Below are positions 1,595 through 21,831 of a stretch of DNA of 64,000 nucleotides, piece after piece. The translations under genes were made by a program, and so were the position numbers. Numbering within the stretch: the first letter of the stretch is position 1; every line of letters starts with the position of its first letter. The stretch spans positions 1,307 to 65,306 of the forward strand of contig CADCNQ010000009.1 of assembly GCA_902802815.1 (NCBI GenBank), read 5' to 3'. The notes under the pieces were generated by a model. It was not told where the DNA came from, searched no databases, and was given only the letters and a program-made list of their open reading frames with translations. The stretch is from an uncultured Bacteroidales bacterium. GTDB lineage: Bacteria; Bacteroidota; Bacteroidia; Bacteroidales; Bacteroidaceae.

Positions 1595-2041
1595 TTATTG
1601 ATTTACAATTTGTTTATATGCCGCTTTCATTTGGCTTAATAATGTAGAAAACACATCTATAAAATCAGAAGATGACACTAAATACATCTCTGATGAAATT
1701 ACGACTCCGTTTTCTTTAGCACATACCTTTATCCCTAATTTTGCATTATATGAGTTAATGTTTTTAGCTATAGTCCCTTGCTTGATTGTATCCGAGTATT
1801 TGACGTAACGACATAAACGAAGATACATCGGACTCTTCTCATCCTTATCAATTTCAATGTAATAGTTTGAGCCTTCACTTTTAAATTTTAATCCGTCAGA
1901 CTGATTCTCCGGGTTTAGTCCTTGACGCGAGAGATAGGAACTTATATCACTACGCAGTTCTTCCTGAGCTTGAGTGTAGTTCTGTGCATACATAAAAACC
2001 GAGCACCAGAACAATACTAAAAATGCAAATTTCTTTTTCAT
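1595..2041 (-). CDS. Small secreted protein of unknown function, related to the N-terminal module of the adjacent Sel1-repeat protein.
   Basis: 148-aa ORF with a signal-like N-terminus (MKKKFAFLVLFWCSVFMYAQ). Residues ~20-85 align with residues ~21-85 of the 1..1590 product, sharing G[FL]NP, DG.[IL]KF and YY[VI].[VI]D. There is a 4-nt gap to the downstream gene and a 6-nt gap to the upstream gene. Confidence 0.6.
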   Translation of the reverse strand: MKKKFAFLVLFWCSVFMYAQNYTQAQEELRSDISSYLSRQGLNPENQSDGLKFKSEGSNYYIEIDKDEKSPMYLRLCRYVKYSDTIKQGTIAKNINSYNAKLGIKVCAKENGVVISSEMYLVSSSDFIDVFSTLLSQMKAAYKQIVNQ

Positions 2042-2047
2042 ATCATT

Positions 2048-4576
2048 TTATTTCTTATTTTTTTCAATCTTGTCTAACAATTCTCTAAGATATTTTATCC
2101 TTATACCATAGTTAAAACCCTGTGTTATACCAACCCCAGAGTTGTTAACGGCAACCAATTTGTGATTTTTATTGAGAACAGGAGAACCACTACTACCAGG
2201 CATGGTTTGAGCACTATACCCTATTCTATACTTTTCACTCGTATTAGAAATCTTTCCGTGCTGCGCCTGTGGTTTGATACCTTCTTGCAACGTCATATCC
2301 TGAAGTCCCATTCCTGCATTATAGCCCAAAACTGTAATTTCGTAATCATCAGGAATCTCCTTATCCAAAGGATCCTTTTCCGGCACCTCAAAAATATATG
2401 CATTCTCAGGAATATCTCTCGCCTTTGAGTTTAGTTGTATAATCGCCACATCGTTCTCCTTTACTGTACCCGGATCTCCACTTTTAAGTGTTGAACACTT
2501 GTGAAATCCAAAACCCTCCAAATCAAGTCCCTTATGAGCGGTTAAGAGGAGATCTTCTATGTCATCGACTCTTGAACCAGTAAATGCGACAGAAACCTTA
2601 CAACGCACCTGCACTTTAAAATCTCCGGTATTCAGTATTTTATCAAAAATTTTCTTTTGGTTTTGATAGTACCTCAGTCCTTCCCTAATGGTCAAATAGT
2701 CTTGATCTAATTTTCTCATACCCGCCCAAATTTTCAACTGATCATCAAAAATATCTATGTATTTTTGGCATGTATCCTTCCTGGCCTGATAGTATTCTCT
2801 CAGTAATCTGGAAACCTCTTCCGGAGCAATCGGATCTGCAATATGTCTATTTGTACCAATTAAACCATCTTCAGAAATTAAGAAACCAGTTCCTGTCGAC
2901 ACTCCCCAAACACGCTCATCAATGTCAAACGTTCCATTAGTAATAGTTCCTTCATTTGAATCATATGTAAAATAAAATGCTTTTAGAGGCTTTTCACCAT
3001 AATTAATATCCTTAACATTCAACTCTACAATATAGCTGGTTTGCGATATTGTCATAACAACTCCTCTCTCCATCTCTGCGATAGTGGGTGTATTGATATC
3101 TATATAACGTTTATAAATTTCATATCCGCCCCAACCGAGCAATAAGAGTAACGGTATCACAGACAACCATTTCCAATCAAACCTTTCTGGAATCACAACC
3201 TTGTCCTTAATTTGAATCGTGTACTCTGTTATATCAGAAGTAAATCGAAGGTTTGACTTTATTTTTCCCTTACCTTTTATGTTTAGAGTTACAGGAATAT
3301 CACTTTCAATAAACACATCGTATGGAAATTCTGCACGTCCATCATCGGAGGTTTGCTGTTGACATGGAGTATCTCCTATTTGTAAACTAACGGAAGCTTT
3401 CGGAATCGGTTTCCCGGTTTTATCTAACACGGTAATTCCGACGTTTGTCTTTTCGACAGTTTTTATGTGAAAATGATATGGTGTTTTCGCTTCTGCTTGA
3501 GTTACATTATACTCCTCTGTATTAGCATAGTTTGCGGTATCAATGACGACAAATTTCTGTCCTTCCTGCATTGTCGGTAGTTGGATCACTCCATCTATTC
3601 CTGAATTATAAACGGTATCTTGTCCCTTTATAACAACCTTCACACAGTAATCTTGAACCGCATTGCCATTTTGATCTTCAACAAATAAGACTGGAGAATA
3701 CTTTACTAATTTCTTTATGTAGGCTTCATACGTTTCTGTGCCAGAAACGACCTCAAAGTTTCTCTCAACATTTCCCGGTAAACTCGGAAAAGCTACAGAA
3801 AATGACTCCCCGTAAGCCAATTCACCCACATCTACTTTACCATCATCAGATGTCACCCCCGTTTTTTCCCCCAAAGAAGAACGAAGTATGATCTTTTCTC
3901 CTTTAACCTTTGCATTATTTTGATCCAAAACCAATACCGATACTTTCTGTTTCTTTATATCTTCTTTAGGCTCCTCAGGATGATCTGTGATTGGGTGAGG
4001 CACAACGGTGTCTGCCGCCGGCTTTCCTGAAACGTCCGCCGGCTTTACCGAAGTATCTGATGGCTTATCCACAATGTCACGCGGAGCTTCTGTTATTATC
4101 GGTTTTTTATTCTCCTCTACGTTTGGCTTACCTGATTCTCCTTTTATAATATGCTTATTAAAAATCTTTGTATCCGAGGTATTCGAATGGGTATACCTAC
4201 ATCCCCAGCCAGCCAAAATGAATTTATAACCATCTGCTGTGTTGCAATAGAATATAAATTCATCACCGGGAATTTCAAGGATATCTTCTACATATTTTGA
4301 CAATTCATCGTTCGCCTCTATCTCTTTGCGAACTTTTGAAACAATCTTATTTAGTGCGGCAGACAATGACTCCATTTCTGCCTTAGGTGCATCGGCAAGG
4401 CTTGTATATTCTGCATCGTCATCTGCATACCAAGTCCAATTAGATTTTGTCGATAGGTCGGCGAAAAATGAAGCCCTATTACCCAACAACATCTTTAATC
4501 TAGTATAGACATTGTTGTAGTTTAAGTTCAGCCTTAAACTTAGATCACTATTCTTTACTTTTATTAGTTGCTTCAT
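2048..4576 (-). CDS. Bitopic membrane protein. It has an N-terminal module shared with the S8 protease gene, a low-complexity P/K/D linker, three beta-sandwich (CarboxypepD_reg/prealbumin-like) repeats, one TM helix and a C-terminal trypsin-like (S1/PA-clan) serine peptidase domain.
   Basis: 842-aa ORF with no signal peptide. TM segment is WKWLSVIPLLLLLGWGGYEIY. Catalytic-triad contexts are GTGFLISEDGLIGTNRHIA (His), ENDVAIIQL (Asp) and MPGSSGSPVLN (Ser). Repeats resemble VLVLDQNNAKVKGEKIIL, VLFVEDQNGNAVQDYCVKV and ITVLDKTGKPIPKASVSL. Confidence 0.75.
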   Translation of the reverse strand: MKQLIKVKNSDLSLRLNLNYNNVYTRLKMLLGNRASFFADLSTKSNWTWYADDDAEYTSLADAPKAEMESLSAALNKIVSKVRKEIEANDELSKYVEDILEIPGDEFIFYCNTADGYKFILAGWGCRYTHSNTSDTKIFNKHIIKGESGKPNVEENKKPIITEAPRDIVDKPSDTSVKPADVSGKPAADTVVPHPITDHPEEPKEDIKKQKVSVLVLDQNNAKVKGEKIILRSSLGEKTGVTSDDGKVDVGELAYGESFSVAFPSLPGNVERNFEVVSGTETYEAYIKKLVKYSPVLFVEDQNGNAVQDYCVKVVIKGQDTVYNSGIDGVIQLPTMQEGQKFVVIDTANYANTEEYNVTQAEAKTPYHFHIKTVEKTNVGITVLDKTGKPIPKASVSLQIGDTPCQQQTSDDGRAEFPYDVFIESDIPVTLNIKGKGKIKSNLRFTSDITEYTIQIKDKVVIPERFDWKWLSVIPLLLLLGWGGYEIYKRYIDINTPTIAEMERGVVMTISQTSYIVELNVKDINYGEKPLKAFYFTYDSNEGTITNGTFDIDERVWGVSTGTGFLISEDGLIGTNRHIADPIAPEEVSRLLREYYQARKDTCQKYIDIFDDQLKIWAGMRKLDQDYLTIREGLRYYQNQKKIFDKILNTGDFKVQVRCKVSVAFTGSRVDDIEDLLLTAHKGLDLEGFGFHKCSTLKSGDPGTVKENDVAIIQLNSKARDIPENAYIFEVPEKDPLDKEIPDDYEITVLGYNAGMGLQDMTLQEGIKPQAQHGKISNTSEKYRIGYSAQTMPGSSGSPVLNKNHKLVAVNNSGVGITQGFNYGIRIKYLRELLDKIEKNKK

Positions 4577-4582
4577 AACGAT

Positions 4583-5599
4583 TTATTTTAGTGCTCCAGA
4601 AATTCTTTGTTTGATAGTCTGTCTCATGTTTTGGTCACCTTTAACAAAATTATCAAATTCTTCGCGTGTATAATTAAACTTATTTATATACTCTGTCTCT
4701 TTATTATCTTCTAAATACTTCTTTATTGCAGCCACCGGAATCTCCACTTCTTCTGCCCATTTGGCATCTTGTGCTCCAGCCCCCCCATAACCTATTGCGT
4801 TTTTTATCTGCGATGGTGGATTAGATACGATGTCTATTAGCCGTTGTAGTTCCATTGTAGCATATCTGTATTCTTTAACACGTTCTATTTCCGATTGCAA
4901 TTCTGCATAATGTGCAGAAGACAAATGGTCTTGAGGAATTTTAGATGTTTTCTGAAGAACATCCCTTACAAGATTTCGGTTGTAAATACTATATTGTATC
5001 TCTAGCAAGTCGAATATTGCTTCATATTCATCACGCAAAACGTAATCTCCTATATTCTCAAGTCTTTTTTTAACTTCTTTTCTTTTGGAATTCAACTCAT
5101 CTTTCGTAGAGAATCCTCTTAATGAAAAACTTGCCAAGAAGTTCTCTATATCATTACGTCTATTCGTTGGTTCTACAGGTCTCTCTACAGGCGGCTGCCT
5201 TTCCGAATTTCTGACATCGCGAATTCCTCCTACAGGAGGCTGTTCCGGCATCACTCTTTCCTCATTTTTAGGAGCTGTCTGCGGAGTTATGATTTGCATT
5301 GAATCCATTAACTCTTTTATCTTTCCATCAAGTTTTTGGGCTCCATCATATATTCTTGGGATTTGTGCATTTATCTGTTTCATTAGACTTATAATCTTTG
5401 CATTGTCTGATTTTTCAGATAAAATTGCAAAAGACTCTTGAATTGCCCTAATATGTTTTGATATACTGTCACACAACTTGCAATACTCGCTCAAGTTCGT
5501 ATTCAAATTGCCTCTCAATATCTCATTTTGCAGATTTTGAGCACTTACCGTATATATACCTACAATGGCAAAAAATGCTGATATTATAAACCTTTTCAT
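4583..5599 (-). CDS. Exported, mostly helical protein of unknown function with a central Pro/Arg-rich linker.
   Basis: The ORF track gives 4583..5614. The likelier start is the internal Met at 5599 (MKRFIISAFFAIVGIYTVSAQ, signal-peptide-like), which leaves a 1-nt gap to the upstream stop at 5601. I recognise no catalytic motif. Confidence 0.6.
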   Translation of the reverse strand: MKRFIISAFFAIVGIYTVSAQNLQNEILRGNLNTNLSEYCKLCDSISKHIRAIQESFAILSEKSDNAKIISLMKQINAQIPRIYDGAQKLDGKIKELMDSMQIITPQTAPKNEERVMPEQPPVGGIRDVRNSERQPPVERPVEPTNRRNDIENFLASFSLRGFSTKDELNSKRKEVKKRLENIGDYVLRDEYEAIFDLLEIQYSIYNRNLVRDVLQKTSKIPQDHLSSAHYAELQSEIERVKEYRYATMELQRLIDIVSNPPSQIKNAIGYGGAGAQDAKWAEEVEIPVAAIKKYLEDNKETEYINKFNYTREEFDNFVKGDQNMRQTIKQRISGALK

Positions 5600-5600
5600 A

Positions 5601-6434
5601 TTAATGGTTACCATTTATAAAGTTATTTAATTTTGATGTAGCAGTTGAATTGGTAGAAATCTCCTTAAATCTGTCAAAGTCTCTCTGAGCTTGCTCCAAA
5701 GCCTGCCATTTAGGAACTCCCTTCTTGATTTGGCTGTAATAATGTTCTTCCACACAATTTTCGAGATTTGTATAATACTCGGATTCTGCTTTTGCCAGGT
5801 TATATGATAGATTCTCTATCTTTGCTCGTATTTCCGGGTTTTTACTAAAATGCGATTTGTAGTACTTCATCCCTTGTATACGGCCTTTCATCGTTTCTGC
5901 CGTTCCTGCATTAAATGCCTTTAACGGGTCAGAATACTTGGCATTTGAACTGAACGAGCAACAGGCAATAACTGTTCTGTATTCATGAATCATATTAAGC
6001 CCCTGTGTAAGATTACTATTACTTCCAGCTTTAAGACTTTCCAGGAATTTCAAATTAGAGTCTAAAGAATTAACTTTATCTGACGGATAGGATGATTGGC
6101 TGAACAACTTGTCTGCATACTCAAACATTGCCTTACATGATTCTGTATAAAGGTACAAACTAAGAGAATTCTTTTCGCCAGGCTGGAGGTTCCCATCTTT
6201 AGCAAAAGTATTTATCTTATTTTGCAGATTTTTATATGCTTGCTGACTCCATTTCCATTCCTTCCCTCTCTCAATGACTTTACACAAATCATTTATTTCT
6301 GTTTCAAACTTTTTGGCGCAACTGGAAGTCACTCCAGCTTTGCTACCACTGTTACCGCCTTGTGTAATGAGAAGGAGCAAGGACACAGCTCCTACTAATA
6401 GGGCGGCTATTATCAATAATTTAATGTATTTCAT
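5601..6434 (-). CDS. Membrane-anchored or exported protein of unknown function.
   Basis: 277-aa ORF with an N-terminal hydrophobic segment (MKYIKLLIIAALLVGAVSLLLLITQGG). The rest is helical-looking and K/N/S-rich. It is tightly packed within the operon. Confidence 0.55.
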   Translation of the reverse strand: MKYIKLLIIAALLVGAVSLLLLITQGGNSGSKAGVTSSCAKKFETEINDLCKVIERGKEWKWSQQAYKNLQNKINTFAKDGNLQPGEKNSLSLYLYTESCKAMFEYADKLFSQSSYPSDKVNSLDSNLKFLESLKAGSNSNLTQGLNMIHEYRTVIACCSFSSNAKYSDPLKAFNAGTAETMKGRIQGMKYYKSHFSKNPEIRAKIENLSYNLAKAESEYYTNLENCVEEHYYSQIKKGVPKWQALEQAQRDFDRFKEISTNSTATSKLNNFINGNH

Positions 6435-6451
6435 TTTCTCTCTATGACTAT

Positions 6452-9001
6452 TTAATAACTACTATATATTTCGTCATATAACCCTTGCAAAGTATGATAT
6501 GTTATACGACCTTTAGAATCCTTGTAAATATCTCTTGTGTGGTCCGGCGGAATCCTATCAAAAATCTTGTTGTATACTTTCTTCTGTTCGTCCGAAAGTT
6601 TTAATTTCTCACTCGAACCTGAATAGGCAATTTTTCCAGGATATTTTTTATTTTCTCCAGTAATATCTCTCAACACGCTCTTCAGGGCATCAATACGCTG
6701 TTTAACAGTCACATTACCATCAATTATTTTATTTTCATCTCCTGTATAATTTCGCAATTCTGTAAGTGTAATGTCTGGAGATTTGAGCCGGTCGAAATCA
6801 GGTTGTTGTCCCGCCATACCTTTGTCGGGATACGTACTTGAACCGGATCCCATTTCCCTATAGTTCTTGTTTTCAACCAGACGCTCTAACTCTCTGGAAA
6901 AATCGCTATCCTCTAATTTATTAATTTTATTAATCCACGATTCCTTTTCATCTTTATTCTTAAACATTGTCATATTAACTAATTCTTCATACCATTTTAG
7001 TTGAGAACAAAGAATATTTAAATTTACTGATTGCGTGCCATGTGATGCAAGATTGTCATTAGATATTTCCTGGTCAACAATTTGGTAAAACTTTTTTCCG
7101 CATAAGAAGGATACTCTTATATAGAAGCGTTGGCTATTACAGCTTTCTTTTATTGTTAACTTATGACGGAGATATTGTTTTGAATTAGAACATGAGTCCT
7201 CGGTATCTTGAAGCAAGTAATCTTCATCTTGTTTTAGCGGTTCTTTATCTTCATCCAACAGCAGAAAGTTATAATTCATATAATTATTTGCTTTTCCTTC
7301 CTGACAAACTTCAATAAAATCCCGCATGCTTTCATTATCTGTATTATCATGATAGGTCAAATAGCACCAACGCTCTTCAGAGGTTTCTTCTGTTTCTTCA
7401 CCTCTGCCAGTAAGTTGTTGCTTAGTTTTCTGGGCATTTTGGAAAGCCCACCATCCCCCACCACCAAGGACTAACAAAAAGATTGGAATTATGGCCACAT
7501 ATCTATGCCATCTAAACTTCTGGTTTCTTCTATTACCAGATTCATTATTCCCATCTTGTACACCACCCAAACTTACCTTTGACGATGTGGGGAATTTGGG
7601 TTGAACCACGACAGTAGTTCCAACAGATTTAATTGGAACGACAGGCTTCCTTACATCAACTCTTCTTTGTTGTAGATTGTTAATAGTCCAAGTACCATTG
7701 CTATGAATAATTAAAGGTTGTTCCGGAGCCACATAATGTTCTGTGTCAACAAATACATTCCAATCTGCTACTCTGCCAGGCAAATGAATCATGCTTTGGT
7801 TTGAAAAGGGTAGAACTTGTCCTGTGCTTTTGTTTACAAATGAAATGGTAAGTCCCAACTGAGATGAATTGACTGGTAAACTGAATCCCTGTTGGACATA
7901 GATTTTATGTTCCTGACCATTACTCAATCGAGATAAATCCAGCCTTTCACTCCTTGAGCTTATGGAAAATGTCGGATTCTCCGCAATAACCTTTTTATCT
8001 TCATATATTTCTGAGCCACGGAACGTAAAGGTATCAGAGGAGATTGGTTGACGAGAACCGTCTGCAAAGACGATTGAAGGCAAGACCTGATCTAAATTTA
8101 CTGGAGTGCTGGTTGAGATATCAACAAACACGAACTTAACAGTCTTTTCTTCTTTCTCGAAATTATATTGGATTTCGAGAATTTCGCCAGGCATTATCCT
8201 GCCCGTTATACGAGGTTCTAAAAGGTGCTCAATAACATCGTTATAAGTACCATCTATCGGGAATTGTTTCTCACCAAGTCCTGCCAGGAACTTATAAAGA
8301 GGTGCCGATAGTTTCACGGGATTTGGCAATACCGCTCCCGTATTCAAGATTCTCACTTTATATAATACGACCTCTTCTGGTTCTTCATCAATACTGTTTG
8401 GTGCTCCCACAGGTGCGCTTGGTGCGAAGAATACAAGATTATAGTTCCCATCACCATAGCTCTTCCTATACGGAGAGTCGAGATAGCTTGGCATGTCCGC
8501 TTCTGACGCTCTTACATAACCCACCTTCTTCATTGGAGAAGGATCCTCATTTATTCTCCTGCAATCCGTCGGTTTGAGAGTATAGCCTTCAAGAATTTCA
8601 GAATAGTAATCCTGCCCTAATACAGCAAGATTTTGATTAATCATCCCATCCAGAAAATTCTTTTCAAAAAAACGATCACTTACCTTTGTAAGCAGAGAAT
8701 AGACAGCCCCTTTCGGAGAACCAGCATTGGGTACAATTGTATAATTTCGTGGGATTAACAGTGATACCACAAGCTTTCCCGGTCTCCTGAAAGAGTCAAG
8801 AATTTGCGTATATTGACTAATTGCAATAAACCTTTTTGCGAAAGTAATAGAATATGCTTTCTCTTCGTTCTCCAAGAACGGAAGGAAACTATGATTGTCA
8901 AAACTGATTTTTTCGTTTCCCAACAACTCTGAAGCTGCAGGAGAGGTATAAAACCTGCCAAATCCTGTCAAGTTTCCGGATATTAATAAACTTATATTCA
9001 T
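6452..9001 (-). CDS. Large bitopic protein of unknown function: a ~500-aa N-terminal predicted cytoplasmic region, one TM helix and a ~320-aa C-terminal region.
   Basis: 849-aa ORF with a single strong TM (YVAIIPIFLLVLGGGGWWAF) preceded by a basic cluster (RRNQKFRWHR), which fits N-in topology by the positive-inside rule. I recognise no enzymatic motif. Confidence 0.6.
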   Translation of the reverse strand: MNISLLISGNLTGFGRFYTSPAASELLGNEKISFDNHSFLPFLENEEKAYSITFAKRFIAISQYTQILDSFRRPGKLVVSLLIPRNYTIVPNAGSPKGAVYSLLTKVSDRFFEKNFLDGMINQNLAVLGQDYYSEILEGYTLKPTDCRRINEDPSPMKKVGYVRASEADMPSYLDSPYRKSYGDGNYNLVFFAPSAPVGAPNSIDEEPEEVVLYKVRILNTGAVLPNPVKLSAPLYKFLAGLGEKQFPIDGTYNDVIEHLLEPRITGRIMPGEILEIQYNFEKEEKTVKFVFVDISTSTPVNLDQVLPSIVFADGSRQPISSDTFTFRGSEIYEDKKVIAENPTFSISSRSERLDLSRLSNGQEHKIYVQQGFSLPVNSSQLGLTISFVNKSTGQVLPFSNQSMIHLPGRVADWNVFVDTEHYVAPEQPLIIHSNGTWTINNLQQRRVDVRKPVVPIKSVGTTVVVQPKFPTSSKVSLGGVQDGNNESGNRRNQKFRWHRYVAIIPIFLLVLGGGGWWAFQNAQKTKQQLTGRGEETEETSEERWCYLTYHDNTDNESMRDFIEVCQEGKANNYMNYNFLLLDEDKEPLKQDEDYLLQDTEDSCSNSKQYLRHKLTIKESCNSQRFYIRVSFLCGKKFYQIVDQEISNDNLASHGTQSVNLNILCSQLKWYEELVNMTMFKNKDEKESWINKINKLEDSDFSRELERLVENKNYREMGSGSSTYPDKGMAGQQPDFDRLKSPDITLTELRNYTGDENKIIDGNVTVKQRIDALKSVLRDITGENKKYPGKIAYSGSSEKLKLSDEQKKVYNKIFDRIPPDHTRDIYKDSKGRITYHTLQGLYDEIYSSY

Positions 9002-9013
9002 TGTCTTTTCTTT

Positions 9014-10849
9014 TTAGCTATTAAACCACTCCTTAAGTCTGTCACCCCATGTCTTTTGACGAAGAGACGTGGTGTTTGCCTGAATAACACGGAGGATTTT
9101 CAAAGAATCTGTTTCGTCAAATGTATATACATCTCCCGGCATGAATTTACCAACACAGAACGGGAAGAGTCCCACCTGAAAGCCTGTTGCTTTATTGATG
9201 TCATACGTTTCACATATTCTCTTGATTCGGTTCAAAACAGCTTGATATCCCTGCTGAACAAGGAGTTCCCTAATAACATTTTCATCAGCATAATCACCCA
9301 ACGTATCGCTCTTTGTAAGAATAATGTGGATTGCCGTCACTTTTCTCATAAGTTCTTTATTCTTTTCCAACAAAGAAGCGATACAATTCAGTACATTATC
9401 TTGCTTTACCAATTGTGTGCTGCCGTCATCCATTACTACATCTTTCTCATTGGTCGGATCTATCACAAAGAAAATCACCTTGTTATTATCATTTTGAAGG
9501 AGGCCGGCAGCTCCTGGTCCTAAATCATCAAGACTAGTTGCATTCTCAATAAAGGCAAAATCTCGTGTTTTTTCACCTGCCATTTCAATAATAGATATAT
9601 TGTGGCTGTTTCTCTCTTCATCGTCTATTAGACAATCAATGACTTGAATAAAAAAGTCGTCTGTCTTGGGTGGAAGCATACTTGAACGAGCATAGTTCTG
9701 CAATTCAACCGCATATCGGCCACCGCCACCCTCTCCTCTTGGATCAAAATCAAAGCCAAGTCTGCCACTAAGACTCAACAAACCGGCCAAAACGCACGTT
9801 TTACCAGAACCGGGAATGCCGAAGAAATATATGTCCGTATTACCTTCCGCACTATGTGGATTACTGAGATTGGACATAAGATTCTGAAGGTCGGTTCTTT
9901 GCTCATGCTTTAATGTTGGATATCTTAATATATGGTTATATCCCTTATCGGTAAGAATATAGCTTTTACTTACCAAATCATCGTAAGTAAGCGTTTTTGT
10001 ACTAATGTACTCATACATCGTATCTCTGTGATAATTGAAGGGGAAACGCTTAATATCTGTTAATAAATCACCCTTCAACTCCATTACTCTTGCATCTGCA
10101 TCTTCTCTAAAACGGCAAGATGGATGTTTACTTATAAATTCGACATAAACCTGAATCGTGTCCACTTCCTTTGCCTTAAACCAATCCTCTCTGGCGGCAA
10201 TATTTTCTTGAGTCCACGTCAATAACTCAGAAGCCTTGTTAATATAATCTTTCGCTGTCTCTGTCGTATTTCTTGCATATTTCTGAATAAAAGCATTGAT
10301 TTCCGACACACGCTTGTAATCGTCCTCTATCACCTTCAGACGGTTAAAATCCTCTATGATGGTTCCATTTGCAATTGCTTCTATTTTTTTACGAGCTTCA
10401 TCCAGTTCTGGACTTTCAAATGTACCACCCCTACGGGAAATGAAACTCTCAACTCCAAGCCATTTATCTACAAAATCATTGATAGTATTGACATCCGACG
10501 AAAGCGATATATTGGTCCATTCATTCTTAATTTCGTCCAACGCCAACTTTACAAGATTATCTTTTGCGGATTCAAGATAAGTATCAGGGAATAAACCTTG
10601 TTCTATCTTTTGGATATACTCCATTAAACTGTTTATCGAACCTTTGCTGGCTTCCCAAATTTTTTCTTTTGCCTGATCATTAAACCTCTGTTCCAGTTCA
10701 TTTATTTTTTTATAATTAACATCTCTCAAGCCTTCTATCGTAATTCCTGAATTCGGATTAAGACATAAGTCTAATAGTTGTTGCAAAGGCATTGCATTAC
10801 ACCTTTGATAAACAGCATCTATTTGTTTCTGAGTTAACTCTTCTCCCAT
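9014..10849 (-). CDS. P-loop GTPase: a Ras/TRAFAC-like C-terminal G domain with a ~330-aa helical N-terminal region.
   Basis: 611-aa ORF. G1/Walker A is FFGIPGSGKTCVL. A G3-like element is ISIIEMAGEKT. G4 (N/T)KxD is HIILTKSD. No TM segment is present. Confidence 0.7.
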   Translation of the reverse strand: MGEELTQKQIDAVYQRCNAMPLQQLLDLCLNPNSGITIEGLRDVNYKKINELEQRFNDQAKEKIWEASKGSINSLMEYIQKIEQGLFPDTYLESAKDNLVKLALDEIKNEWTNISLSSDVNTINDFVDKWLGVESFISRRGGTFESPELDEARKKIEAIANGTIIEDFNRLKVIEDDYKRVSEINAFIQKYARNTTETAKDYINKASELLTWTQENIAAREDWFKAKEVDTIQVYVEFISKHPSCRFREDADARVMELKGDLLTDIKRFPFNYHRDTMYEYISTKTLTYDDLVSKSYILTDKGYNHILRYPTLKHEQRTDLQNLMSNLSNPHSAEGNTDIYFFGIPGSGKTCVLAGLLSLSGRLGFDFDPRGEGGGGRYAVELQNYARSSMLPPKTDDFFIQVIDCLIDDEERNSHNISIIEMAGEKTRDFAFIENATSLDDLGPGAAGLLQNDNNKVIFFVIDPTNEKDVVMDDGSTQLVKQDNVLNCIASLLEKNKELMRKVTAIHIILTKSDTLGDYADENVIRELLVQQGYQAVLNRIKRICETYDINKATGFQVGLFPFCVGKFMPGDVYTFDETDSLKILRVIQANTTSLRQKTWGDRLKEWFNS

Positions 10850-10895
10850 AATATGCTAATTTTTATGATTTATTCCTTTATTTATATATGTATCT

Positions 10896-11849
10896 TTATT
10901 GTATATTCATACCACCCCACATATTAATATCTGAAGCCGCCCCGACACCGATTTCATTTACCGTAGGGCTTGGGGCGGTGAAAAATTTAACAAGACCTAA
11001 AACGCCTAAAAATAGTATTATAAGTATACCACCAAAAGAAAATCCCGGGAAAGATTTGAATATTTCCGCGATATTGTCATCTACTACATATTGAGACGCA
11101 TTGAACGAAGGTATATCCTTCTCTGAAGCAGTCTTGCTTTTCTCGTAAATATCTTGTAACTCCTTGGCAAATCTCTCTTGAACATTTCCCAAATCAGATG
11201 CATATTGGGAGACAGACATAATATTCCAATTATTGAAATTGTTAGCACACCCTTCGACTAAAGCATCTTTTTCTGATTCTAACGACTGGTAGTCTGCACT
11301 TTTTAGTTTAAACAAGAAACTCTCTACAGCCTGATCAACTGCGGTCTCATTCACATCATCAACACTTTTTAATCCGAGCATCCCAACGAGTTTCTGCCTT
11401 CCTTCTTGATGATTAAGAAGCGCTTTCAGTTGGTATCCGTAGGCATTGGCTCGAGCATCACAATTCTTATTATAACTATCAAACATTTTATTAATTGCAG
11501 TAACATTCACACCAACTTTCTTAACAAGATTATCCTGCCCTAACTGTATTTCACAAAATTTTGCAGAATAAATATAACATGGTATTAATGAAACCAAATA
11601 AAATCCGAGCATCGCATACTTAACCTTTGCCCAGTTGCTCTGATTCCGATTCTGTGACTTTGCAAATGCTGCAAAAAACACAAACACTGTCATTAATACC
11701 ACAAGTAACACCGCTACAATTACACTGGGAATCTTGTTTCCCAACGTCATGAAATTCATTCCGAAGAATACAACAATTCCCAAAAACGTAATAGAGATAA
11801 ATGAAATTACATCTCCAATAGGCAATTTGTCTGATTTTGTCTGTGACAT
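10896..11849 (-). CDS. Polytopic membrane protein of unknown function: three N-terminal TM helices, a ~170-aa helical soluble domain and a C-terminal TM helix.
   Basis: 317-aa ORF. Hydrophobic segments are VISFISITFLGIVVFFGMNF, SVIVAVLLVVLMTVFVFFAAF, AMLGFYLVSLIPCYIY and FSFGGILIILFLGVLGLVKFF. Confidence 0.6.
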   Translation of the reverse strand: MSQTKSDKLPIGDVISFISITFLGIVVFFGMNFMTLGNKIPSVIVAVLLVVLMTVFVFFAAFAKSQNRNQSNWAKVKYAMLGFYLVSLIPCYIYSAKFCEIQLGQDNLVKKVGVNVTAINKMFDSYNKNCDARANAYGYQLKALLNHQEGRQKLVGMLGLKSVDDVNETAVDQAVESFLFKLKSADYQSLESEKDALVEGCANNFNNWNIMSVSQYASDLGNVQERFAKELQDIYEKSKTASEKDIPSFNASQYVVDDNIAEIFKSFPGFSFGGILIILFLGVLGLVKFFTAPSPTVNEIGVGAASDINMWGGMNIQ

Positions 11850-11870
11850 AGTTTTAATATTTAATTGTTA

Positions 11871-14621
11871 TTATTTTACTCTTACCAAATTAAATGTTAA
11901 TGAATTTTCAACACTTACAGCCGTACAAACCAAATTCCCTTTTCTATCAGAAGAACATTCGTATTTATACGGAATAAAATCATCTGCTCCGTTGGTTGCC
12001 GGAGATTTCTGAACAATATATATATTTCCACTCTTAATGAAAGCTTCTAACGGGGCCGTATAACGTACATTATTCTTTACTATAATTAGAGTTCCTTTCT
12101 GTTTCTTAAACTGCATATATAATTCAATGGGGAGATTATCATTGGTTGAGACAAGACTTGTAGTTGATTTCCACAGGCCATCCAAACCATGTTTATTTTT
12201 TATTGCCTTACTATATTTCAACGTATCTGAAGGTGTATCAGAATCAGGACAAATTTTTGTCAAACTGTCAATTTTAGCTTTCAATCTTTTTACCTCTTCT
12301 ATAATCTCATCGCATCTATCAGGTGTTTTCTCGCCCATTGCCAATAATACTGCTCTATGAAGATTTACCATTGGTCCGATATTATCACCCACATTACGTC
12401 CCGACTGTTGAAGTATTGAAGTTATCTGACTGACGGTTAAACTTCTGTCAATACTTTTTAAAAGAGCAATAACACCAGAAACCACAGGTGCTGCCATACT
12501 TGTACCGTTCATGCTCATATAACTGTTGTGAGGAGCTGCACTGTAAATATCTACACCTGGGGCAGACACTGTAGAATAAAATCTATTAAGTTGAGGATAA
12601 ACTCCAAAATTACTAAAATGCGCCTTTGATAAATCTGTGTTTAATGCAGAGACACGAATGGTTTCTATACTACGTTTCTTAGGGTCAATTCCAGAAACGA
12701 CATTATCATTTCCTGCAGCGAATACAATGATGCTATTCTTTTGTTTGGCTTTCTCGAAGATTTTTGACCACATCAGTTCTTCCTGTTTCATAGAACTGCT
12801 AATATAATTAAGTTGCTGAGATTCTGACATAGTTTTCACAATGTCTGGAGTGTACATTCCCAACGAAATGTTTATGACATCTGCCCCTTGGGAAATAGCA
12901 TACATTACGCCTTCCATAATAGCCTGATTACTCATTGTTCCATCAGGATTGTCATTTCCCACTTGTACGGGAAGCAACTTACATTTAGGAGCGACACCTA
13001 ATAAGCCCGTGCCATTATTAGCATTTCCGACCGCAGTTGCTGCGACATGTGTTCCATGAGCATTTTCCCCATTTTTGGTTATAATAGGTTTTAATTTCGC
13101 ATTCTGTGTTAGTACATTGTATGGATGAATTACTTTTCCTTTAAATTCCGGATGAGTTAAATCAAATCCATTATCAACAATAGCAACCACAATATCTGAA
13201 TCTCCTTGTAGAATATTCCATGCATCATAAGCACCAATCTCTTTTAAATACCATGCATGAGACGGGGTTTTCAAATCCGGGTCGTCAAATGAAATTTCTT
13301 CCGAGCTGTAAACTGTTTCGTCAAATACGTCAAAAGAAAAATCGCTTAACTTATCCTTTATTTCTTTCTTCACCTGCTCCCGCATGTCTGACGGAACCTT
13401 TATTTGAAGATTACAGAACTCTTCATTATAGTAAAAAATTTGATACTCTTCTTCGGGATATGCCTTCTTGAAAGCTTTTGCCCATTCCAACATTGTGTTG
13501 TCGTCAGTCTTTTCCAAAAGGATATTGAGACGATCTTTTGCTATTTGGGTCATTCCGTCTGCACTCAGACCCACATCACCATCCTCAATTGGAAGTACAA
13601 CAGGTTCATCTGGCAATGGGTTGAAGAATGGGTTTATCAGACTTATCGGTCCCTGACATCCTTTACATAAAAACAAGATTGCAAATATAAGCGAAAGAAT
13701 CAATAGAATACGCCACAATTTACGCAGAATAAATATCAATCCTTTCCATAAACTACAGAAGAATACTTTCCATGTATATTCGTCATCTTTCTTGGGCCGT
13801 TTGTTTTGATTATTTTTACTCTCTGTTTGGGGTTTATCCGTGAGTTCTTTCTTTTCCTCGTTAATTTCCTGTGATACGTCTACGGTTATCTTTTTTGGGG
13901 AACGTACAAGTTCAGGCTTTGGTATATCTTGAATCTGTATCACTTCTTCTTGCTCATTAGGAACCTCTTGGGGAGGATTATCCTGAACTGGCGCTTCAGA
14001 TATATCAGTTTGAGGTTGTTGGGCAACTACGATCTCTGTATCATTTACAGAAACAAGTTCATCAATATCATCATCTGACTGATTTTGCACTTCAGATTTG
14101 ATTTTTGGCTCAACTATAATATCAGGATTCTTTTGTAGTTTATCCCAATTTGCCACAAATTTGCCACTCCTATAAATACTGCCAGAACCAAGGTCTGGTC
14201 TACGCGGGATAAGTCCCCAATTGACTACAACCACATTACCATTACCACAATATACAGAGCGCTCATCAATATATGAGACAGCCTTGGAGAGCAGTTCGCT
14301 TAAAGGTGCCCCACCCTCTTCTTCTTTTAGGATCTGTATTAATGACTCTATCGAATTGATACGCTCTTTCAGGGCATAAGCATACCTCTCCTTTAACACT
14401 CCATCAAGGTCAATTAACAATTTGGGCCTCTCAGTAAAAGAATCCGTTGCCCATGTTATCTCTGTTTGAGTACGTAATCTGGGATTTGCAAGAAAATCAT
14501 TATACGGAAATTCTTCTCTTGATCTCAATAACCCCTGAATACCCTCATAATAGTCTATCACAATGACAGACTTCACTTTGGGCATGATAAAGTCCTTAAT
14601 TGATGACCGATGTATGTCCAT
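11871..14621 (-). CDS. Bitopic membrane protein. It has an N-terminal module shared with the S1 protease gene, an acidic/Pro-rich linker, a TM region, a subtilisin-like (S8) serine peptidase domain and a C-terminal beta-rich domain.
   Basis: 916-aa ORF. S8 catalytic contexts are VAIVDNGFDLTHPEF (Asp), NAHGTHVAATAVGN (His), FAAGNDN (oxyanion Asn) and NGTSMAAPVVSGVIALL (Ser). The TM region LIFILRKLWRILLILSLIFAILFL is preceded by KRPKKDDEY, consistent with N-in topology. Confidence 0.8.
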   Translation of the reverse strand: MDIHRSSIKDFIMPKVKSVIVIDYYEGIQGLLRSREEFPYNDFLANPRLRTQTEITWATDSFTERPKLLIDLDGVLKERYAYALKERINSIESLIQILKEEEGGAPLSELLSKAVSYIDERSVYCGNGNVVVVNWGLIPRRPDLGSGSIYRSGKFVANWDKLQKNPDIIVEPKIKSEVQNQSDDDIDELVSVNDTEIVVAQQPQTDISEAPVQDNPPQEVPNEQEEVIQIQDIPKPELVRSPKKITVDVSQEINEEKKELTDKPQTESKNNQNKRPKKDDEYTWKVFFCSLWKGLIFILRKLWRILLILSLIFAILFLCKGCQGPISLINPFFNPLPDEPVVLPIEDGDVGLSADGMTQIAKDRLNILLEKTDDNTMLEWAKAFKKAYPEEEYQIFYYNEEFCNLQIKVPSDMREQVKKEIKDKLSDFSFDVFDETVYSSEEISFDDPDLKTPSHAWYLKEIGAYDAWNILQGDSDIVVAIVDNGFDLTHPEFKGKVIHPYNVLTQNAKLKPIITKNGENAHGTHVAATAVGNANNGTGLLGVAPKCKLLPVQVGNDNPDGTMSNQAIMEGVMYAISQGADVINISLGMYTPDIVKTMSESQQLNYISSSMKQEELMWSKIFEKAKQKNSIIVFAAGNDNVVSGIDPKKRSIETIRVSALNTDLSKAHFSNFGVYPQLNRFYSTVSAPGVDIYSAAPHNSYMSMNGTSMAAPVVSGVIALLKSIDRSLTVSQITSILQQSGRNVGDNIGPMVNLHRAVLLAMGEKTPDRCDEIIEEVKRLKAKIDSLTKICPDSDTPSDTLKYSKAIKNKHGLDGLWKSTTSLVSTNDNLPIELYMQFKKQKGTLIIVKNNVRYTAPLEAFIKSGNIYIVQKSPATNGADDFIPYKYECSSDRKGNLVCTAVSVENSLTFNLVRVK

Positions 14622-14622
14622 G

Positions 14623-17547
14623 TTACAAGGTAGCTAATTCCTTATATGATTGCAATAAAACACCAAGTTGTTTATTGGCTTCCACATCATAGTTGGGTAC
14701 ATCATAAGATGCGATAAAGGATATCAGAAGCAAATCTATCCACTTGTTGTAGTTAATAAATGATGGCAGAGATGTGAGCATGGCATTCTCTTCCGTTGGA
14801 CGAATATCATCAAACAAATCCGAAAGTTCTTCATTTGACATGGGAACCTTGTCGGTCATTCCATAATCAAAAGACAGATGAAGATTATTCTTTTCATTTA
14901 TCAACTTTAGGTCTGCTATCTTTTCATCTGAATAGTGGTTATATCCAAAAGTAACAACAAATTCATTTATAATCTCTGCTGTTGTATCTGCTATCATATC
15001 CAATATCTGATGAGGAACAGAAATGGCATCAACAAACGGACTAATGGTTTTTGCAATGAATGCGACCAACTTTGTCGTGTCTGCAACAGCTTTGATGTTC
15101 TCTATAAGATCGAGAACAATAAGAGTGTTGCAGCCCTCTGCTTCATAATATTTCAAGTTTTTCTGTGCCTTAATATCCTCAATCCATTTATTGACGATAC
15201 CTTCTGCTAACTGTTCTGAATTGCTCTTCTGCTTGAAGTTACATTCAAATAACTTCTCAAGAGAGATTCCTTTGACCCCCTCAAAGAATTCCTTACAGTC
15301 AAGAACCGTGGGATAATGATACTCCTGACGTAATATCTCCAAATTTTCTTCGAATGTATTAGTTGAAGATATACGACCATGACAACGAGACAGGATTAAG
15401 TCATATTCTTTCATATCTCTGTCAACAATCATCTTTGTGTTGTTCAAAGAATTATAATAGAAATCAAAAACGTAATCCTCACTAACCTGTAAGTTCTGTA
15501 TCATTCGGCCGAAGAAATAATTGTCCTTACCACAGACCACATCAAACTCTGCCACAATACACCCACTCCGCATAATAGCCTTCTGGAGGATGTTCTCGTC
15601 GTTATCATCATGATAATACTCTTGCATTAACTGATATGTCTGGGCATGAAGTCCTTTAACCTCTGACTGATACTTGTACAAACGACTTTCTTTTGCATTA
15701 GTCGCGACAATCCCAAGATTCTCAATTATGCGCGTGGCACCGTCGTTGTTCATCGTTGCTGCAGCATCCCATGCCAATTCGGGGTCTTCAAAGAATGTAG
15801 TAACATAAGGGCTTGTTATGAAACTTTTTCGTAATTCTTGATGGAACTGTATATCTATTTCCGATGTCTCCACACCTTGAGTGTCAAATCCCTCAAACAG
15901 ACGATTGCCATTGACACCAGACCACTTATAATCTCTCAACAAATAAGTATTGCGGAATCCACCTCTTTCTGTCCAATTACTAAACCAGCTCAAACTATCT
16001 GCTTGCAACACCTGATCATATAAAACTTTTTTATAACGGTCTTCCCACCTCTTTTCTATCTGATCATCGCCTCCGCTTTGTACAGAATGACTCATATCTA
16101 TGTTAAACTTGGTCGCAACCATAAATAATGGAGATACTATACTTTTATCTAAGTAAGTTGTACGTTCCTTAACTGTTGAGCCCATGTTTTGTTTCACCCA
16201 TTGTTCAACCAGCCCAGGCATAACAGTTGGACCATTCTGCATATGGTCGTGGCAAAGCATTAGAACATTTATCAATCGTTCATCACTATATTTATTAAAT
16301 AGGTAACGAACCTTACCACGGAGCATCATTTTATTGTTAAGTTCTATCTTTATTTGTTCTTCCTGCAATTCAAGTGCTGCACGCGCTCCGGGAAAGTCAA
16401 AAATATCAACCGTATTCAAGAACTGTTTGCTTACTTTCTTATTCCAACCTTTGGAGAGAAGACGCTGACGATTACCATCTTCTGTGATACCATCAAGATT
16501 ATATGTCAGTTCTTCATTTATCGTTTCTTCTGGAATCTGGAACACGACTTCAGCAGAAATAGCAGAAAGGACACTCTTGGAGAAACCCTCTACAATCTTC
16601 TTTTCTTCTGTAAGGAGGTCTGTCCCCATATCAGGATCTGTGTTTCCTGTCGTTGGAGAAGCAACATCTAGTTTTTGTAAGCAAAGAGAACTCATTAGTG
16701 TAGTTGTCGTATTCAATAACGCAGAAATGGGAACATATACTCGCTTCGAGAAAGCAAGTGTCTCATATCCTTGAAGCATTCTTACAAAAAGACTTGTTAT
16801 GTCAGAATTATCATACCATAATTTAGACATCAATTGAGGCCATTCGCGTGGTTGAACATAAGGAATAATGCGTGCCAGGACATCAAAGAAACGAGAATCA
16901 AGCAACTCCTTTGCTTTTGTTATACCAACATGACCTTCAACATATTCACGTACGTTCATTATGTCATCTTCGTCAAGAACATTTTGAACTTTTGGAACAC
17001 CTTTATAACGCCTTTCCTGAGCCAACATGAACTCATCAATATCTTCCCTGTCTATAACAGAATGTGACTTGACATCATTGTATGCAGTATCACATAATAT
17101 CTGAAGCATATCAGCTATGGACAAGACCTTAACCATGATTGGATAGTTCTCGTCAGGCACTTCATAACTACAAGTAAATCGCGTTGCCACACCTGTAGCC
17201 TCAGTATCACGGGTAATGGGGTTAAACTGCTCAACAAAATTATAAGACTCGCCGGTCTTAGGATCCTGTACCATAAATTGCTGGCCCTTTCGCGCAAGCA
17301 GAGAACTAATAACATAGCTCTTACCCTTCTGACTCTCCCCGAATGCTGCAATAGCAGGATTACTCTCCAACGAGAAGCGAAATCTTTTTAACTGTCTTCT
17401 TATATTCACCAATTTCTTGAAAGTCTCTTCACGGCGGCTCTCCTGTAAATGGTTGTCACCCCATTTGATGAAATTATTGATAGAATTGATTTGATCTGTT
17501 ACGTTTTTTATCAATTCACCATTTTGGGTCTCTATTATATCGTTCAT
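14623..17547 (-). CDS. Large P-loop NTPase (GTPase-like), SrfC-like.
   Basis: 974-aa ORF. Walker A is AAFGESQKGKSYVISSLL. A switch-I-like Thr sits in ITRDTEATGVATRF. A Walker B/DxxG-like element is VDIFDFPGARA. Its size and its position immediately downstream of an SrfB-like gene mirror the srfB-srfC pairing. The family assignment is from memory and has not been searched. Confidence 0.6.
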   Translation of the reverse strand: MNDIIETQNGELIKNVTDQINSINNFIKWGDNHLQESRREETFKKLVNIRRQLKRFRFSLESNPAIAAFGESQKGKSYVISSLLARKGQQFMVQDPKTGESYNFVEQFNPITRDTEATGVATRFTCSYEVPDENYPIMVKVLSIADMLQILCDTAYNDVKSHSVIDREDIDEFMLAQERRYKGVPKVQNVLDEDDIMNVREYVEGHVGITKAKELLDSRFFDVLARIIPYVQPREWPQLMSKLWYDNSDITSLFVRMLQGYETLAFSKRVYVPISALLNTTTTLMSSLCLQKLDVASPTTGNTDPDMGTDLLTEEKKIVEGFSKSVLSAISAEVVFQIPEETINEELTYNLDGITEDGNRQRLLSKGWNKKVSKQFLNTVDIFDFPGARAALELQEEQIKIELNNKMMLRGKVRYLFNKYSDERLINVLMLCHDHMQNGPTVMPGLVEQWVKQNMGSTVKERTTYLDKSIVSPLFMVATKFNIDMSHSVQSGGDDQIEKRWEDRYKKVLYDQVLQADSLSWFSNWTERGGFRNTYLLRDYKWSGVNGNRLFEGFDTQGVETSEIDIQFHQELRKSFITSPYVTTFFEDPELAWDAAATMNNDGATRIIENLGIVATNAKESRLYKYQSEVKGLHAQTYQLMQEYYHDDNDENILQKAIMRSGCIVAEFDVVCGKDNYFFGRMIQNLQVSEDYVFDFYYNSLNNTKMIVDRDMKEYDLILSRCHGRISSTNTFEENLEILRQEYHYPTVLDCKEFFEGVKGISLEKLFECNFKQKSNSEQLAEGIVNKWIEDIKAQKNLKYYEAEGCNTLIVLDLIENIKAVADTTKLVAFIAKTISPFVDAISVPHQILDMIADTTAEIINEFVVTFGYNHYSDEKIADLKLINEKNNLHLSFDYGMTDKVPMSNEELSDLFDDIRPTEENAMLTSLPSFINYNKWIDLLLISFIASYDVPNYDVEANKQLGVLLQSYKELATL

Positions 17548-20500: not shown

Positions 20501-20813
20501 TACTTTCATCCACTATACGTTCATTACCATCAGAATCAAGGTATAGGTATGGAATCGGTTTATGATTCCTTAACTCATCAAGTCTAACTATCTGACCACC
20601 CGTAAAATTGACTGCCATCTCCAATGTCCACACGTCATCCATGATGTTGTAACTTTCATGGAACACCATAGGAACATCAAAGTCATTTTCGTCTTTGATG
20701 GTTAACGGACTCAAGAAGTTACCTTCTTTGTCAACAAAACTTTCTTCTGGTTTAATTTCAAAATCAGATGAAAAAAACTGAATGCCTGTGTTGGCAATTA
20801 GTGAAATGTTCAT
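17562..20813 (-). CDS. Very large Hsp70/actin-fold (ASKHA) ATPase, SrfB-like.
   Basis: The ORF track gives 17562..20873. The likelier start is ATG at 20811-20813 (MNISLIANTG...), 5 nt after the upstream stop. ASKHA motifs are phosphate-1 VDLVLDIGNSRTCGVLF, phosphate-2 GSVDIGAGTTDLMICAY and an adenosine-like CDIVLLAGKPTSL. Confidence 0.65.
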   Translation of the reverse strand: MNISLIANTGIQFFSSDFEIKPEESFVDKEGNFLSPLTIKDENDFDVPMVFHESYNIMDDVWTLEMAVNFTGGQIVRLDELRNHKPIPYLYLDSDGNERIVDESKIDFTTLDVLDEKDCYSDYCFAGSITERLAKGTCPLDAIENQWLPMPMFEKDSQGNSVFGPTGWCRMKLVPSSKIKNIRRYHVVWAFDTTSVKNDISGNKPFFYDGEEEKHYSISKDISLLFNFFSPKPYDCEWVDEYIATLIHGNKENTELTSAEGDISHFHYIAYYITIVSYIQKIGLTPEIILYTDDQETKPVDLVLDIGNSRTCGVLFEDANFTKVDMLQLQDLSEPWRVYKKPFDMRLAFHHCKFGEMDVPDQFSWQSFLRIGDEAIKLIYKSRPANGVAQKTTNYSSPKRYLWDNKQFEGQWDFLTTEEDENSSLNHYINIKGLSEQFDSDGTLRRSKNGGIFSSFSRRSLMTFVMIEIFQQANCQINSPGFREKHGDINIPRKLRSIIITCPTAMPKEEQVILRQCAEDAYISLLRCKDPDLYYQPYDPAEWQGKIQIIPSVKDLTTNPNNPATQRIKTEWGYDEATCCQLVYLYAEVAQRYLNHCEDFFNLYGHVRKEFLEDDYKKNSLTIGSVDIGAGTTDLMICAYKYDEKGVCKLTPKPLFWDSFYYAGDDILEEIVRAVIIEGKNKGLGQLYEGPIFNAICSNYMALSDDDFVEALNLKGKINLSNLSDAEKQEIKYTYASRETSERIHNFFGKDKALMDYKDRIMRQDFNVQVSVPMGLKMLDMLRLGRKSMRLKYEDFFGELQPASFILEHFNKHFSIEANGKSYVNFDFKKIVWNFDESILSNIIITKIEPLMKQLAIVLNTYNCDIVLLAGKPTSLTAITDLFLKYYPTSPNRLIRLNDYRVGEWYPFADGLGYFKDQKSLVAIGAMIGYMSSNGGINGFHMDMTHLKKDMVSTANYMGLYNVVNQKVSEAILTPDQNTATFEVHGFPLFIGCKQLVSQFYQARPIFALNLAEGVDLHTVSLPLKVSVVRNYSQDKEELKIVSAIDAMGKPFSQQKLSFGVQSLASDGAYWLDKGEFVLSING

Positions 20814-20818
20814 ATCTT

Positions 20819-21772: not shown

Positions 21773-21831
21773 AATAGACCTTTTGTATCGGTCATAAATC
21801 GTATAAATGAAAAAGCGTGGAGACCACATCT

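Follow-up and report, generated by a model that had tools for sequence, protein, structure and literature searches.

A predicted SrfA-N domain shared by proteases of two unrelated clans in an SrfABC-type operon of a Bacteroidales bacterium

Introduction

The SrfABC system, of which SrfA is the membrane component beside SrfB and SrfC, occurs widely and has been called a "virulence factor" and a "toxin", labels that leave open what it does. As described in a preprint of September 2026 (10.64898/2026.09.18.752743), SrfA starts with an N-terminal domain called SrfA-N, continues through a disordered region and a membrane helix into a novel domain, and ends in a lipocalin-like domain called SrfA-C; of the two named domains, the former exhibits a kinase-like fold from which the catalytic motifs are absent and for which no ATP binding is predicted, and the latter an FLNGxW motif together with four cysteines. 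In the AlphaFold3 model of the same preprint, SrfA forms a platform that SrfB is the first to bind and SrfC the next, and the abstract names SrfA-N as the platform. In Xenorhabdus, native polyacrylamide gel electrophoresis and co-immunoprecipitation revealed SrfA-SrfB, SrfA-SrfC and SrfB-SrfC contacts (PMC6950479). The present analysis deals with a window of 64,000 nucleotides (nt), i.e., the whole stretch of DNA analysed, from an uncultured Bacteroidales bacterium (GenBank assembly GCA_902802815.1, contig CADCNQ010000009.1, positions 1,307 to 65,306), and more precisely with two of its genes, encoding a protein of 916 amino acids (aa) with a subtilisin-like S8 peptidase domain and a protein of 842 aa with a trypsin-like S1 domain. 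An original prediction, made from the letters of the window, had proposed that both share a homologous N-terminal module, which would be a cytoplasmic docking or adaptor domain for the nucleoside triphosphatases (NTPases) of the operon.

EssB/YukC of the type VII secretion system crosses the membrane once and has a cytoplasmic pseudokinase domain acting as a scaffold. Effector-associated domains (EADs) are defined by the trait that the same domain is also found on the NTPase-side component (Kaur et al., eLife 2020, PMC7159879).

The module shared by the two proteases already bears a name, as it is predicted to be SrfA-N, the N-terminal non-catalytic domain of SrfA. The SrfA-N domain and the SrfABC triad being known, the locus is a protease-carrying version of SrfABC and not a new kind of adaptor. 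Like SrfA of Salmonella, Xenorhabdus and Haemophilus (NCBIfam family SrfA_fam, NF040486), the proteins of the window combine SrfA-N, a disordered linker, a single helix and a periplasmic part with linkage to srfB and srfC, and the 916-aa protein further has an SrfA-C with the motif GLDGLW and four cysteines. Unlike in the canonical system, however, an S8 domain and a conserved domain preceding it are inserted before SrfA-C in the 916-aa protein, a second paralogue bears immunoglobulin-like (Ig-like) repeats and an S1 domain without SrfA-C, the gene order is srfB-srfC-srfA instead of srfA-B-C, a conserved cassette of a membrane protein and a GTPase follows, the whole-protein scores lie under the NCBIfam cut-off, and the hosts are Bacteroidota instead of Proteobacteria. 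In the searchable literature, no description was found of an S8 insertion into SrfA, nor of the S1-bearing second paralogue, the wider set of periplasmic partners or the membrane-protein/GTPase cassette.

The N-terminal module shared by the two proteases

BLASTP of both N-termini returned no alignment within the claimed region, and Smith-Waterman scores were marginal, namely 47 against 29 +/- 5 for shuffled sequences with BLOSUM62 (reached by 20 of 2000 shuffles) and 71 against 39 +/- 7 with BLOSUM45 (reached by 2 of 2000). Since hhalign with shallow alignments of three and five sequences gave a probability of 0.2%, deeper alignments were needed. Word-indexed homologue searches supplied 2, 5 and 15 matches, mainly fragments devoid of domain information. 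A profile combining the two module types was run in an exhaustive HMMER search of 1.84 billion representative proteins (E <= 1e-3); 189 representatives were found to hold the module, which sits at the N-terminus in every one of them. Hidden Markov models (HMMs) built from the seeds only divide these 189 proteins into an 842-type and a 916-type group, with few sequences matching both.

For hhalign, the two sets were built separately, i.e., 22 sequences of the 842 type and 105 of the 916 type, the latter excluding sequences with 842-type affinity. The comparison yielded a probability of 98.0% (E 2.8e-13) over 111 columns, pairing residues 19-133 of the 842-aa protein with 24-144 of the 916-aa protein, within the stretches named in the original prediction, for which such an HHalign comparison had been put forward as the check; with the 916 side limited to close relatives, the result was still significant (95.1%, E 3.3e-8). 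An HMM made from 916-type sequences alone finds the 842-aa protein among 622 open reading frames (ORFs) of the window with an E-value of 7e-6. AlphaFold2 models were obtained for the 916 module from a mixed alignment (predicted local distance difference test, pLDDT, 93.5; predicted template modelling score, pTM, 0.88) and for the 842 module from an alignment of 842-type sequences only (pLDDT 85.2, pTM 0.78), and both exhibit the same order of elements, namely beta-beta-alpha-beta-beta-long alpha-alpha-beta-beta-beta. The similarity of the two modules is confirmed as real at the residues originally indicated, by profile methods only.

Identification of the module as SrfA-N

The NCBIfam model SrfA_fam has a curated whole-protein cut-off of 150 bits. 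One member of the module family, P0124, scores 191.9 bits over its full length and thus exceeds it; several others match the model across their N-terminus or their whole length, and 26 of the 40 module proteins free of any protease match it. Six module-family sequences matching SrfA_fam were taken as validated SrfA N-termini. Against these, hhalign gave 99.3% (E 9.6e-21) for the 916 type and 97.6% (E 3e-12) for the 842 type; by profile comparison, both module types fall within the SrfA-N family. Taken alone, the 916 module matches SrfA_fam at aa 107-139 (E 0.0057, 16.1 bits).

Across the family, invariance or near-invariance is limited to two Trp, a single Gly and a single Ala, and kinase catalytic motifs were not seen among the conserved module residues. 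With Foldseek, the top matches of both module models are mostly protein-kinase-like, with best E-values of 0.13 and 0.07 and a TM-score <=0.45; no match to the PDB or to viral structures was significant for either model. A kinase-like fold of SrfA-N would be consistent with these results, which do not confirm it. The Foldseek list for the 842 module (m762b4f50fcfd) includes an EssB pseudokinase fragment (PDB 4ann, 21st, E 1.6, non-significant). By analogy, the SrfA-N proteins would be like EssB/YukC in having a cytoplasmic kinase-like non-catalytic domain, one helix and an extracytoplasmic domain, but they are unlike it in the lack of a significant match in structure or sequence and in belonging to another system with other partners.

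Architecture and membrane topology of the two proteins

The 916-aa protein, read from its N-terminus, comprises:

14172..14621, minus strand: predicted SrfA-N domain, aa 1-150 (hhalign 99.3%; SrfA_fam E 0.0057; AlphaFold2 pLDDT 93.5)
13770..14171, minus strand: low-complexity linker, aa 151-284, with E, K, D, Q and P abundant and a net charge of -12 (composition)
13653..13766, minus strand: hydrophobic region, aa 286-323, with the helix at about aa 305-323 (hydropathy, flanking charge)
13302..13649, minus strand: conserved, predicted periplasmic domain before S8, aa 325-440 (found with S8 in 64 family representatives)
12390..13199, minus strand: peptidase S8, aa 475-744, with D483, H522, N638 and S708 (Pfam PF00082, E 1.2e-48; motifs located)
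11874..12254, minus strand: SrfA-C-like domain, aa 790-916 (SrfA_fam match, E 1.4e-10; motif and cysteines)

Positions 332-427 of SrfA_fam match residues 813-905 (E 1.4e-10), and the protein has GLDGLW at aa 812 and cysteines at 770, 791, 889 and 899, to be compared with the FLNGxW motif and four cysteines of SrfA-C. Starting with SrfA-N and ending in SrfA-C, the 916-aa protein is a predicted SrfA that has acquired an S8 protease by insertion into its periplasmic part. The best NCBIfam match of its S8 domain is a type VII secretion mycosin, under the cut-off and non-significant.

The 842-aa protein comprises:

4184..4576, minus strand: predicted SrfA-N domain, aa 1-131 (hhalign 97.6% against SrfA and 98.0% against the 916 type; pLDDT 85.2)
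3950..4183, minus strand: linker, aa 132-209, with K, P and D abundant (composition)
3182..3949, minus strand: Ig-like beta-sandwich repeats, aa 210-465, on the module side of the helix (sub-threshold Pfam matches to Big_1, MG4 and CarboxypepD_reg)
3113..3169, minus strand: membrane helix, aa 470-488, WLSVIPLLLLLGWGGYEIY (sole hydrophobic segment of the protein)
2072..2959, minus strand: trypsin-like S1 domain, aa ~540-835, with H578, D709 and S796 (Pfam Trypsin_2, E 7e-12; Trypsin, E 1.2e-8)

This protein, a putative second SrfA-N paralogue, bears Ig-like repeats and terminates with its S1 protease domain, SrfA-C being absent; each of the 13 842-type representatives keeps the repeats. As had been claimed, the two proteases belong to unrelated clans, and both catalytic sets are complete. 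The further claim that they have the same architecture stands for the linker, the single helix and the catalytic domain, not for the ~250 aa of Ig-like repeats that precede the helix of the 842-aa protein only; as such, the two architectures are similar and not identical.

Both proteins lack a signal peptide. Around the helix, lysine and arginine residues (K+R) number 4 before and 0 after in the 916-aa protein, and 4 before and 2 after in the 842-aa protein. In 102 family members with a single helix, the N-side carries 3.77 K+R on average and the C-side 1.98 (Wilcoxon p 1.4e-13), the N-side count being greater in 80 and smaller in 7. The occurrence of OmpA as a C-terminal partner in the family and the four cysteines of the SrfA-C-like domain fit a periplasmic location of the C-side. 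On account of this positive-inside bias, of the OmpA and SrfA-C domains on the C-side and of the missing signal peptide, the modules are predicted to be cytoplasmic and the proteases periplasmic, in line with the first suggestion that the module is a non-catalytic N-terminal domain lying inside the cell. By hydropathy, composition and charge, the linker, single helix and inside N-terminus of the SrfA family are thus predicted here as well.

Partners of SrfA-N and linkage to SrfB and SrfC

Among the best 150 of the 189 module representatives, the S8 domain is present in 66 and Ig-like repeats with S1 in 13, and the other partners found are a papain-like C1 peptidase, OmpA, vWA and IgGFc-binding domains; in module relatives, Listeria-Bacteroides repeats often precede the membrane helix. 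The expectation that the module travels with differing periplasmic domains is therefore borne out by the profile search. SrfA-N would be a portable N-terminal anchor, joined to three protease clans, to the peptidoglycan-binding OmpA and to vWA. In one representative, P0141 (1432 aa), the SrfA-N module is followed by a unit of conserved domain and S8 that occurs twice in tandem. A role of the module as prodomain or inhibitor was considered and rejected, as the membrane separates it from the proteases and it is also joined to domains other than proteases.

In the window, the genes concerned are:

17562-20873, minus strand: SrfB (Pfam PF07520, E 1e-185)
14623-17547, minus strand: SrfC, Virul_Fac (Pfam PF10139, E 2e-102; Walker A motif GESQKGKS)
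11871-14621, minus strand: 916-aa protein (predicted SrfA-N, linker, helix, conserved domain, S8, SrfA-C)
10896-11849, minus strand: 317-aa multi-pass membrane protein, partner downstream of the SrfA-N::S8 gene (hydropathy; 48/57 related loci)
9014-10849, minus strand: 611-aa P-loop GTPase with GIPGSGKT and TKSD (sub-threshold Pfam DO-GTPase2; 56/57 related loci)
6452-9001, minus strand: 849-aa single-pass membrane protein (hydropathy; related loci hold a 700-940-aa gene at the same place)
2048-4576, minus strand: 842-aa protein (predicted SrfA-N, linker, Ig-like repeats, helix, S1)

The SrfB and SrfC genes lie directly upstream of the 916-aa gene, and linkage to srfB and srfC is found in the window as in related loci, where the order SrfB, SrfC, SrfA-N protein, 317-like membrane protein, 611-like GTPase and 700-940-aa gene is kept. 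Scanning of metagenomes with a clade alignment of 10 sequences supplied 79 loci, which group into 59 clusters at 80% identity. Where the upstream flank is 6.3 kb or longer, both SrfB and SrfC lie upstream (49/49 loci), a figure that holds for one clade, as the 79 loci were fetched with two of its motifs; where it is 1 kb or longer, SrfC lies upstream (72/72 loci). Downstream, the GTPase is present in 56/57 loci and the 317-like protein in 48/57. The first SrfA-N protein bears S8 in 64 of the 79 loci, so the S8-bearing form dominates the metagenomic sample. That the module is tied to NTPase genes, as first proposed, is upheld by SrfB and SrfC adjoining it in every testable locus.

A second or third SrfA-N protein is not universal, being found in the window as well as in Xylanibacter muris (L004) and at the loci L007/L008, L010, L012, L038 and L041; L038 holds three consecutive SrfA-N ORFs. 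At the 3' ends of the 79 metagenomic loci, no second copy was found, the matches being truncated primary copies. Scanning of a genome collection with the 611-aa GTPase supplied two loci only, one from Xylanibacter muris and one from a Prevotellaceae metagenome-assembled genome. At L002 (4418-6965) and L003 (1809-4356), both from metagenome assemblies, two ORFs take the place of a single 842-type gene, one of 219 aa with SrfA-N only and one of 637 aa with Ig-like repeats, helix and S1, and in the 916 homologue of Xylanibacter muris (L004, 6179-8965) S8 and SrfA-C are separated by an in-frame stop; these breaks could be real splits or errors of sequencing or assembly.

The gene following the canonical-like SrfA P0124 is not SrfB. 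On two of three short contigs with canonical-like SrfA genes, a separate trypsin-like gene lies directly upstream of SrfA. On the contigs of P0138 and P0151, a stand-alone Trypsin_2 gene precedes the canonical-like SrfA, and immunity-like genes (Colicin_immun, Imm_superinfect) are found near it. This arrangement is a fission counterpart of the SrfA-N::S1 fusion and hints at a conflict setting.

A proposed docking site for SrfB and SrfC and its alternatives

We put at about 0.65 the probability of the explanation as a whole, i.e., that SrfA-N anchors the two proteases, that the cytoplasmic SrfB and SrfC dock on it and that their assembly controls the periplasmic effectors. In the cytoplasm, SrfA-N would serve as docking site for SrfB and SrfC, and the conserved 611-aa GTPase may likewise dock there; nucleotide-driven assembly would then position, cluster or switch the periplasmic effector domains across the inner membrane through SrfA-N. 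As the sole conserved globular domain on the cytoplasmic side, SrfA-N would be the natural contact point. We infer the binding of SrfB and SrfC to SrfA-N by transfer from canonical SrfABC, together with the regulation of both proteases by the NTPase assembly, and by this analogy the docking-domain idea of the original prediction appears plausible.

Several observations weigh against this explanation. On SrfA_fam, the 916-aa protein scores 41.2 bits, through its C-terminal domain only, against the cut-off of 150; the 842-aa module has no direct match to the model, and neither protein attains the whole-protein cut-off. The kinase-like matches of Foldseek are non-significant. The invariable presence of SrfB and SrfC concerns the one sampled clade, and on the three short contigs neither was found within 4-9 kb of the canonical-like SrfA genes, so the link may not be universal. 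Moreover, the Ig-like repeats of the 842-aa protein and the Listeria-Bacteroides repeats of P0047, P0057, P0078 and others stand on the predicted cytoplasmic side. Both types of repeat are usually extracellular.

As a first alternative, the proteins could be part of an exported toxin complex released in membrane vesicles, a role put forward for the Xenorhabdus and Haemophilus SrfABC, in which SrfA-N would have no task but assembly and the proteases would be a payload directed at other cells. Cytotoxicity and complex formation are published for Xenorhabdus SrfABC (PMC6950479), vesicle export is hypothesised in the preprint (10.64898/2026.09.18.752743), immunity-like genes occur near some SrfA-like genes and the locus is a low-GC island. 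Nevertheless, neither a secretion signal nor genes dedicated to export were recognised in the operon, the OmpA and vWA partners point to the producer's own envelope, and export would be compatible with a docking role of SrfA-N without supplanting it. On balance, this alternative appears unlikely.

Similarly placed is an autonomous sensor, i.e., a degenerate kinase-like SrfA-N that binds a cytoplasmic ligand or is modified and itself signals across the membrane to its protease, with SrfB and SrfC acting elsewhere. The kinase-like folds at the top of the Foldseek lists of both models, although non-significant, and the few SrfA-like genes without SrfB/SrfC on short contigs would agree with it. 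Against it, the invariant residues are only two Trp and a Gly with no kinase motif seen, ATP binding is not predicted according to the preprint (10.64898/2026.09.18.752743), and SrfB and SrfC adjoin the module throughout the sampled clade. The odds of such a sensor are low.

The original prediction had also drawn an analogy with homotypic EADs, in which the module would pair with its own copy on an NTPase or adaptor protein. Like EADs (Kaur et al. 2020, PMC7159879), the module is N-terminal, non-catalytic and common to varied, interchangeable effectors in an NTPase-rich operon, and as some loci hold two or three module proteins, contacts between the modules of different effectors are possible. 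Unlike EADs, it is an alpha/beta domain of ~130-150 aa with the membrane between it and the effector domains, and the second copy on an NTPase or adaptor component that characterises them is absent: by HMM and by hhalign (probability <=0.3%), the module was not found in SrfB, SrfC or the 611-, 849-, 317-, 343-, 277- and 148-aa proteins, and most related loci have a single module protein within 10 kb. The homotypic analogy has consequently been abandoned as very improbable, and any docking on the NTPases of the operon would be heterotypic. Finally, an inverted topology, with modules outside and proteases in the cytoplasm, or a chance resemblance due to composition, is next to incredible: the usually extracellular repeats beside the module and the negative pairwise BLASTP speak for the one and the other, but the missing signal peptide, the charge bias (p 1.4e-13) and the OmpA or cysteine-bearing SrfA-C-like domain on the C-side disfavour the former, and profile-profile E-values of 1e-8 to 1e-21 the latter.

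The docking reading recasts SrfA as a modular anchor for envelope effectors. The association of the SrfA-N anchor with srfB/srfC in the sampled clade and with varied periplasmic partners suggests as core logic that envelope effectors are controlled from the cytoplasm. More speculatively, SrfB, SrfC and the GTPase might form a cytoplasmic nucleotide-driven engine controlling periplasmic S8, S1, C1, OmpA and vWA effectors via interchangeable SrfA-N anchors, i.e., a hitherto unrecognised trans-envelope conflict or envelope-remodelling system widespread in Bacteroidota, a possibility we regard as doubtful; if true, the label of SrfABC toxin or virulence factor would misdescribe the basic function of the family. 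The variable periplasmic part offers experimental handles, namely protease activity, substrates and catalytic-site mutants.

Operon organisation and genomic setting

The G+C content is 35-40% across nt 1-22,000 of the window and 47-56% in the remainder (22,000-64,000), and related loci of other origin are likewise low (36-44%); such a low-GC block holding the operon suggests horizontal acquisition. The low-GC region consists of one long string of minus-strand genes. The locus is a Bacteroidota-type operon made up of a NusG-like gene, srfB, srfC, an srfA-like gene, the membrane protein, the GTPase and further genes. Besides those listed above, it holds:

21101-21829, minus strand: NusG/KOW (UpxY-like) gene at the operon head (Pfam NusG, E 8e-9, plus KOW)
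20819-21079, minus strand: small DUF1294 gene, second in the gene string
5601-6434, minus strand: 277-aa protein with an N-terminal hydrophobic segment, in the gene string
4583-5614, minus strand: 343-aa protein with an N-terminal hydrophobic segment, in the gene string
1595-2041, minus strand: 148-aa protein, in the gene string
1-1590, minus strand: Sel1-repeat protein, in the gene string, cut by the left window edge

The listed TTG start of SrfB (20873) runs into the DUF1294 gene, and translation probably starts at the ATG at nt 20813 (residue 21). SrfB has the motifs DIGNSRT and DIGAGTTD, which we take to be actin/Hsp70-type phosphate motifs, and SrfC is a predicted P-loop NTPase. Searches of PDB sequences with SrfB and SrfC retrieved no relatives, and PADLOC made no call for SrfB, SrfC or the 611-aa GTPase and returned generic protease matches only. 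The GTPase matches Pfam DO-GTPase2 with an E-value of 0.0023 and 18.1 bits, under the cut-off of 27. Its setting is like that of DO-GTPase systems (PF19993; Kaur et al. 2020), where a P-loop GTPase also lies among membrane proteins and variable effectors, but differs in that the match is below threshold, that no GAP1-like partner was identified and that PADLOC makes no call. At L015, L036 and L041, an extra small 611-like GTPase (340-400 aa) stands between SrfC and the SrfA-N gene.

At the left end of the string, the 148-aa protein is paralogous to the N-terminus of the Sel1-repeat protein (BLASTP E 9e-12), both have signal-like N-termini, and the Sel1-repeat protein shows a weak TY-Chap1 chaperone-like match. 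By eye, the helix of the 849-aa protein (~7440-7500, minus strand; VAIIPIFLLVLGGGGWW) resembles that of the 842-aa protein (WLSVIPLLLLLGWGG).

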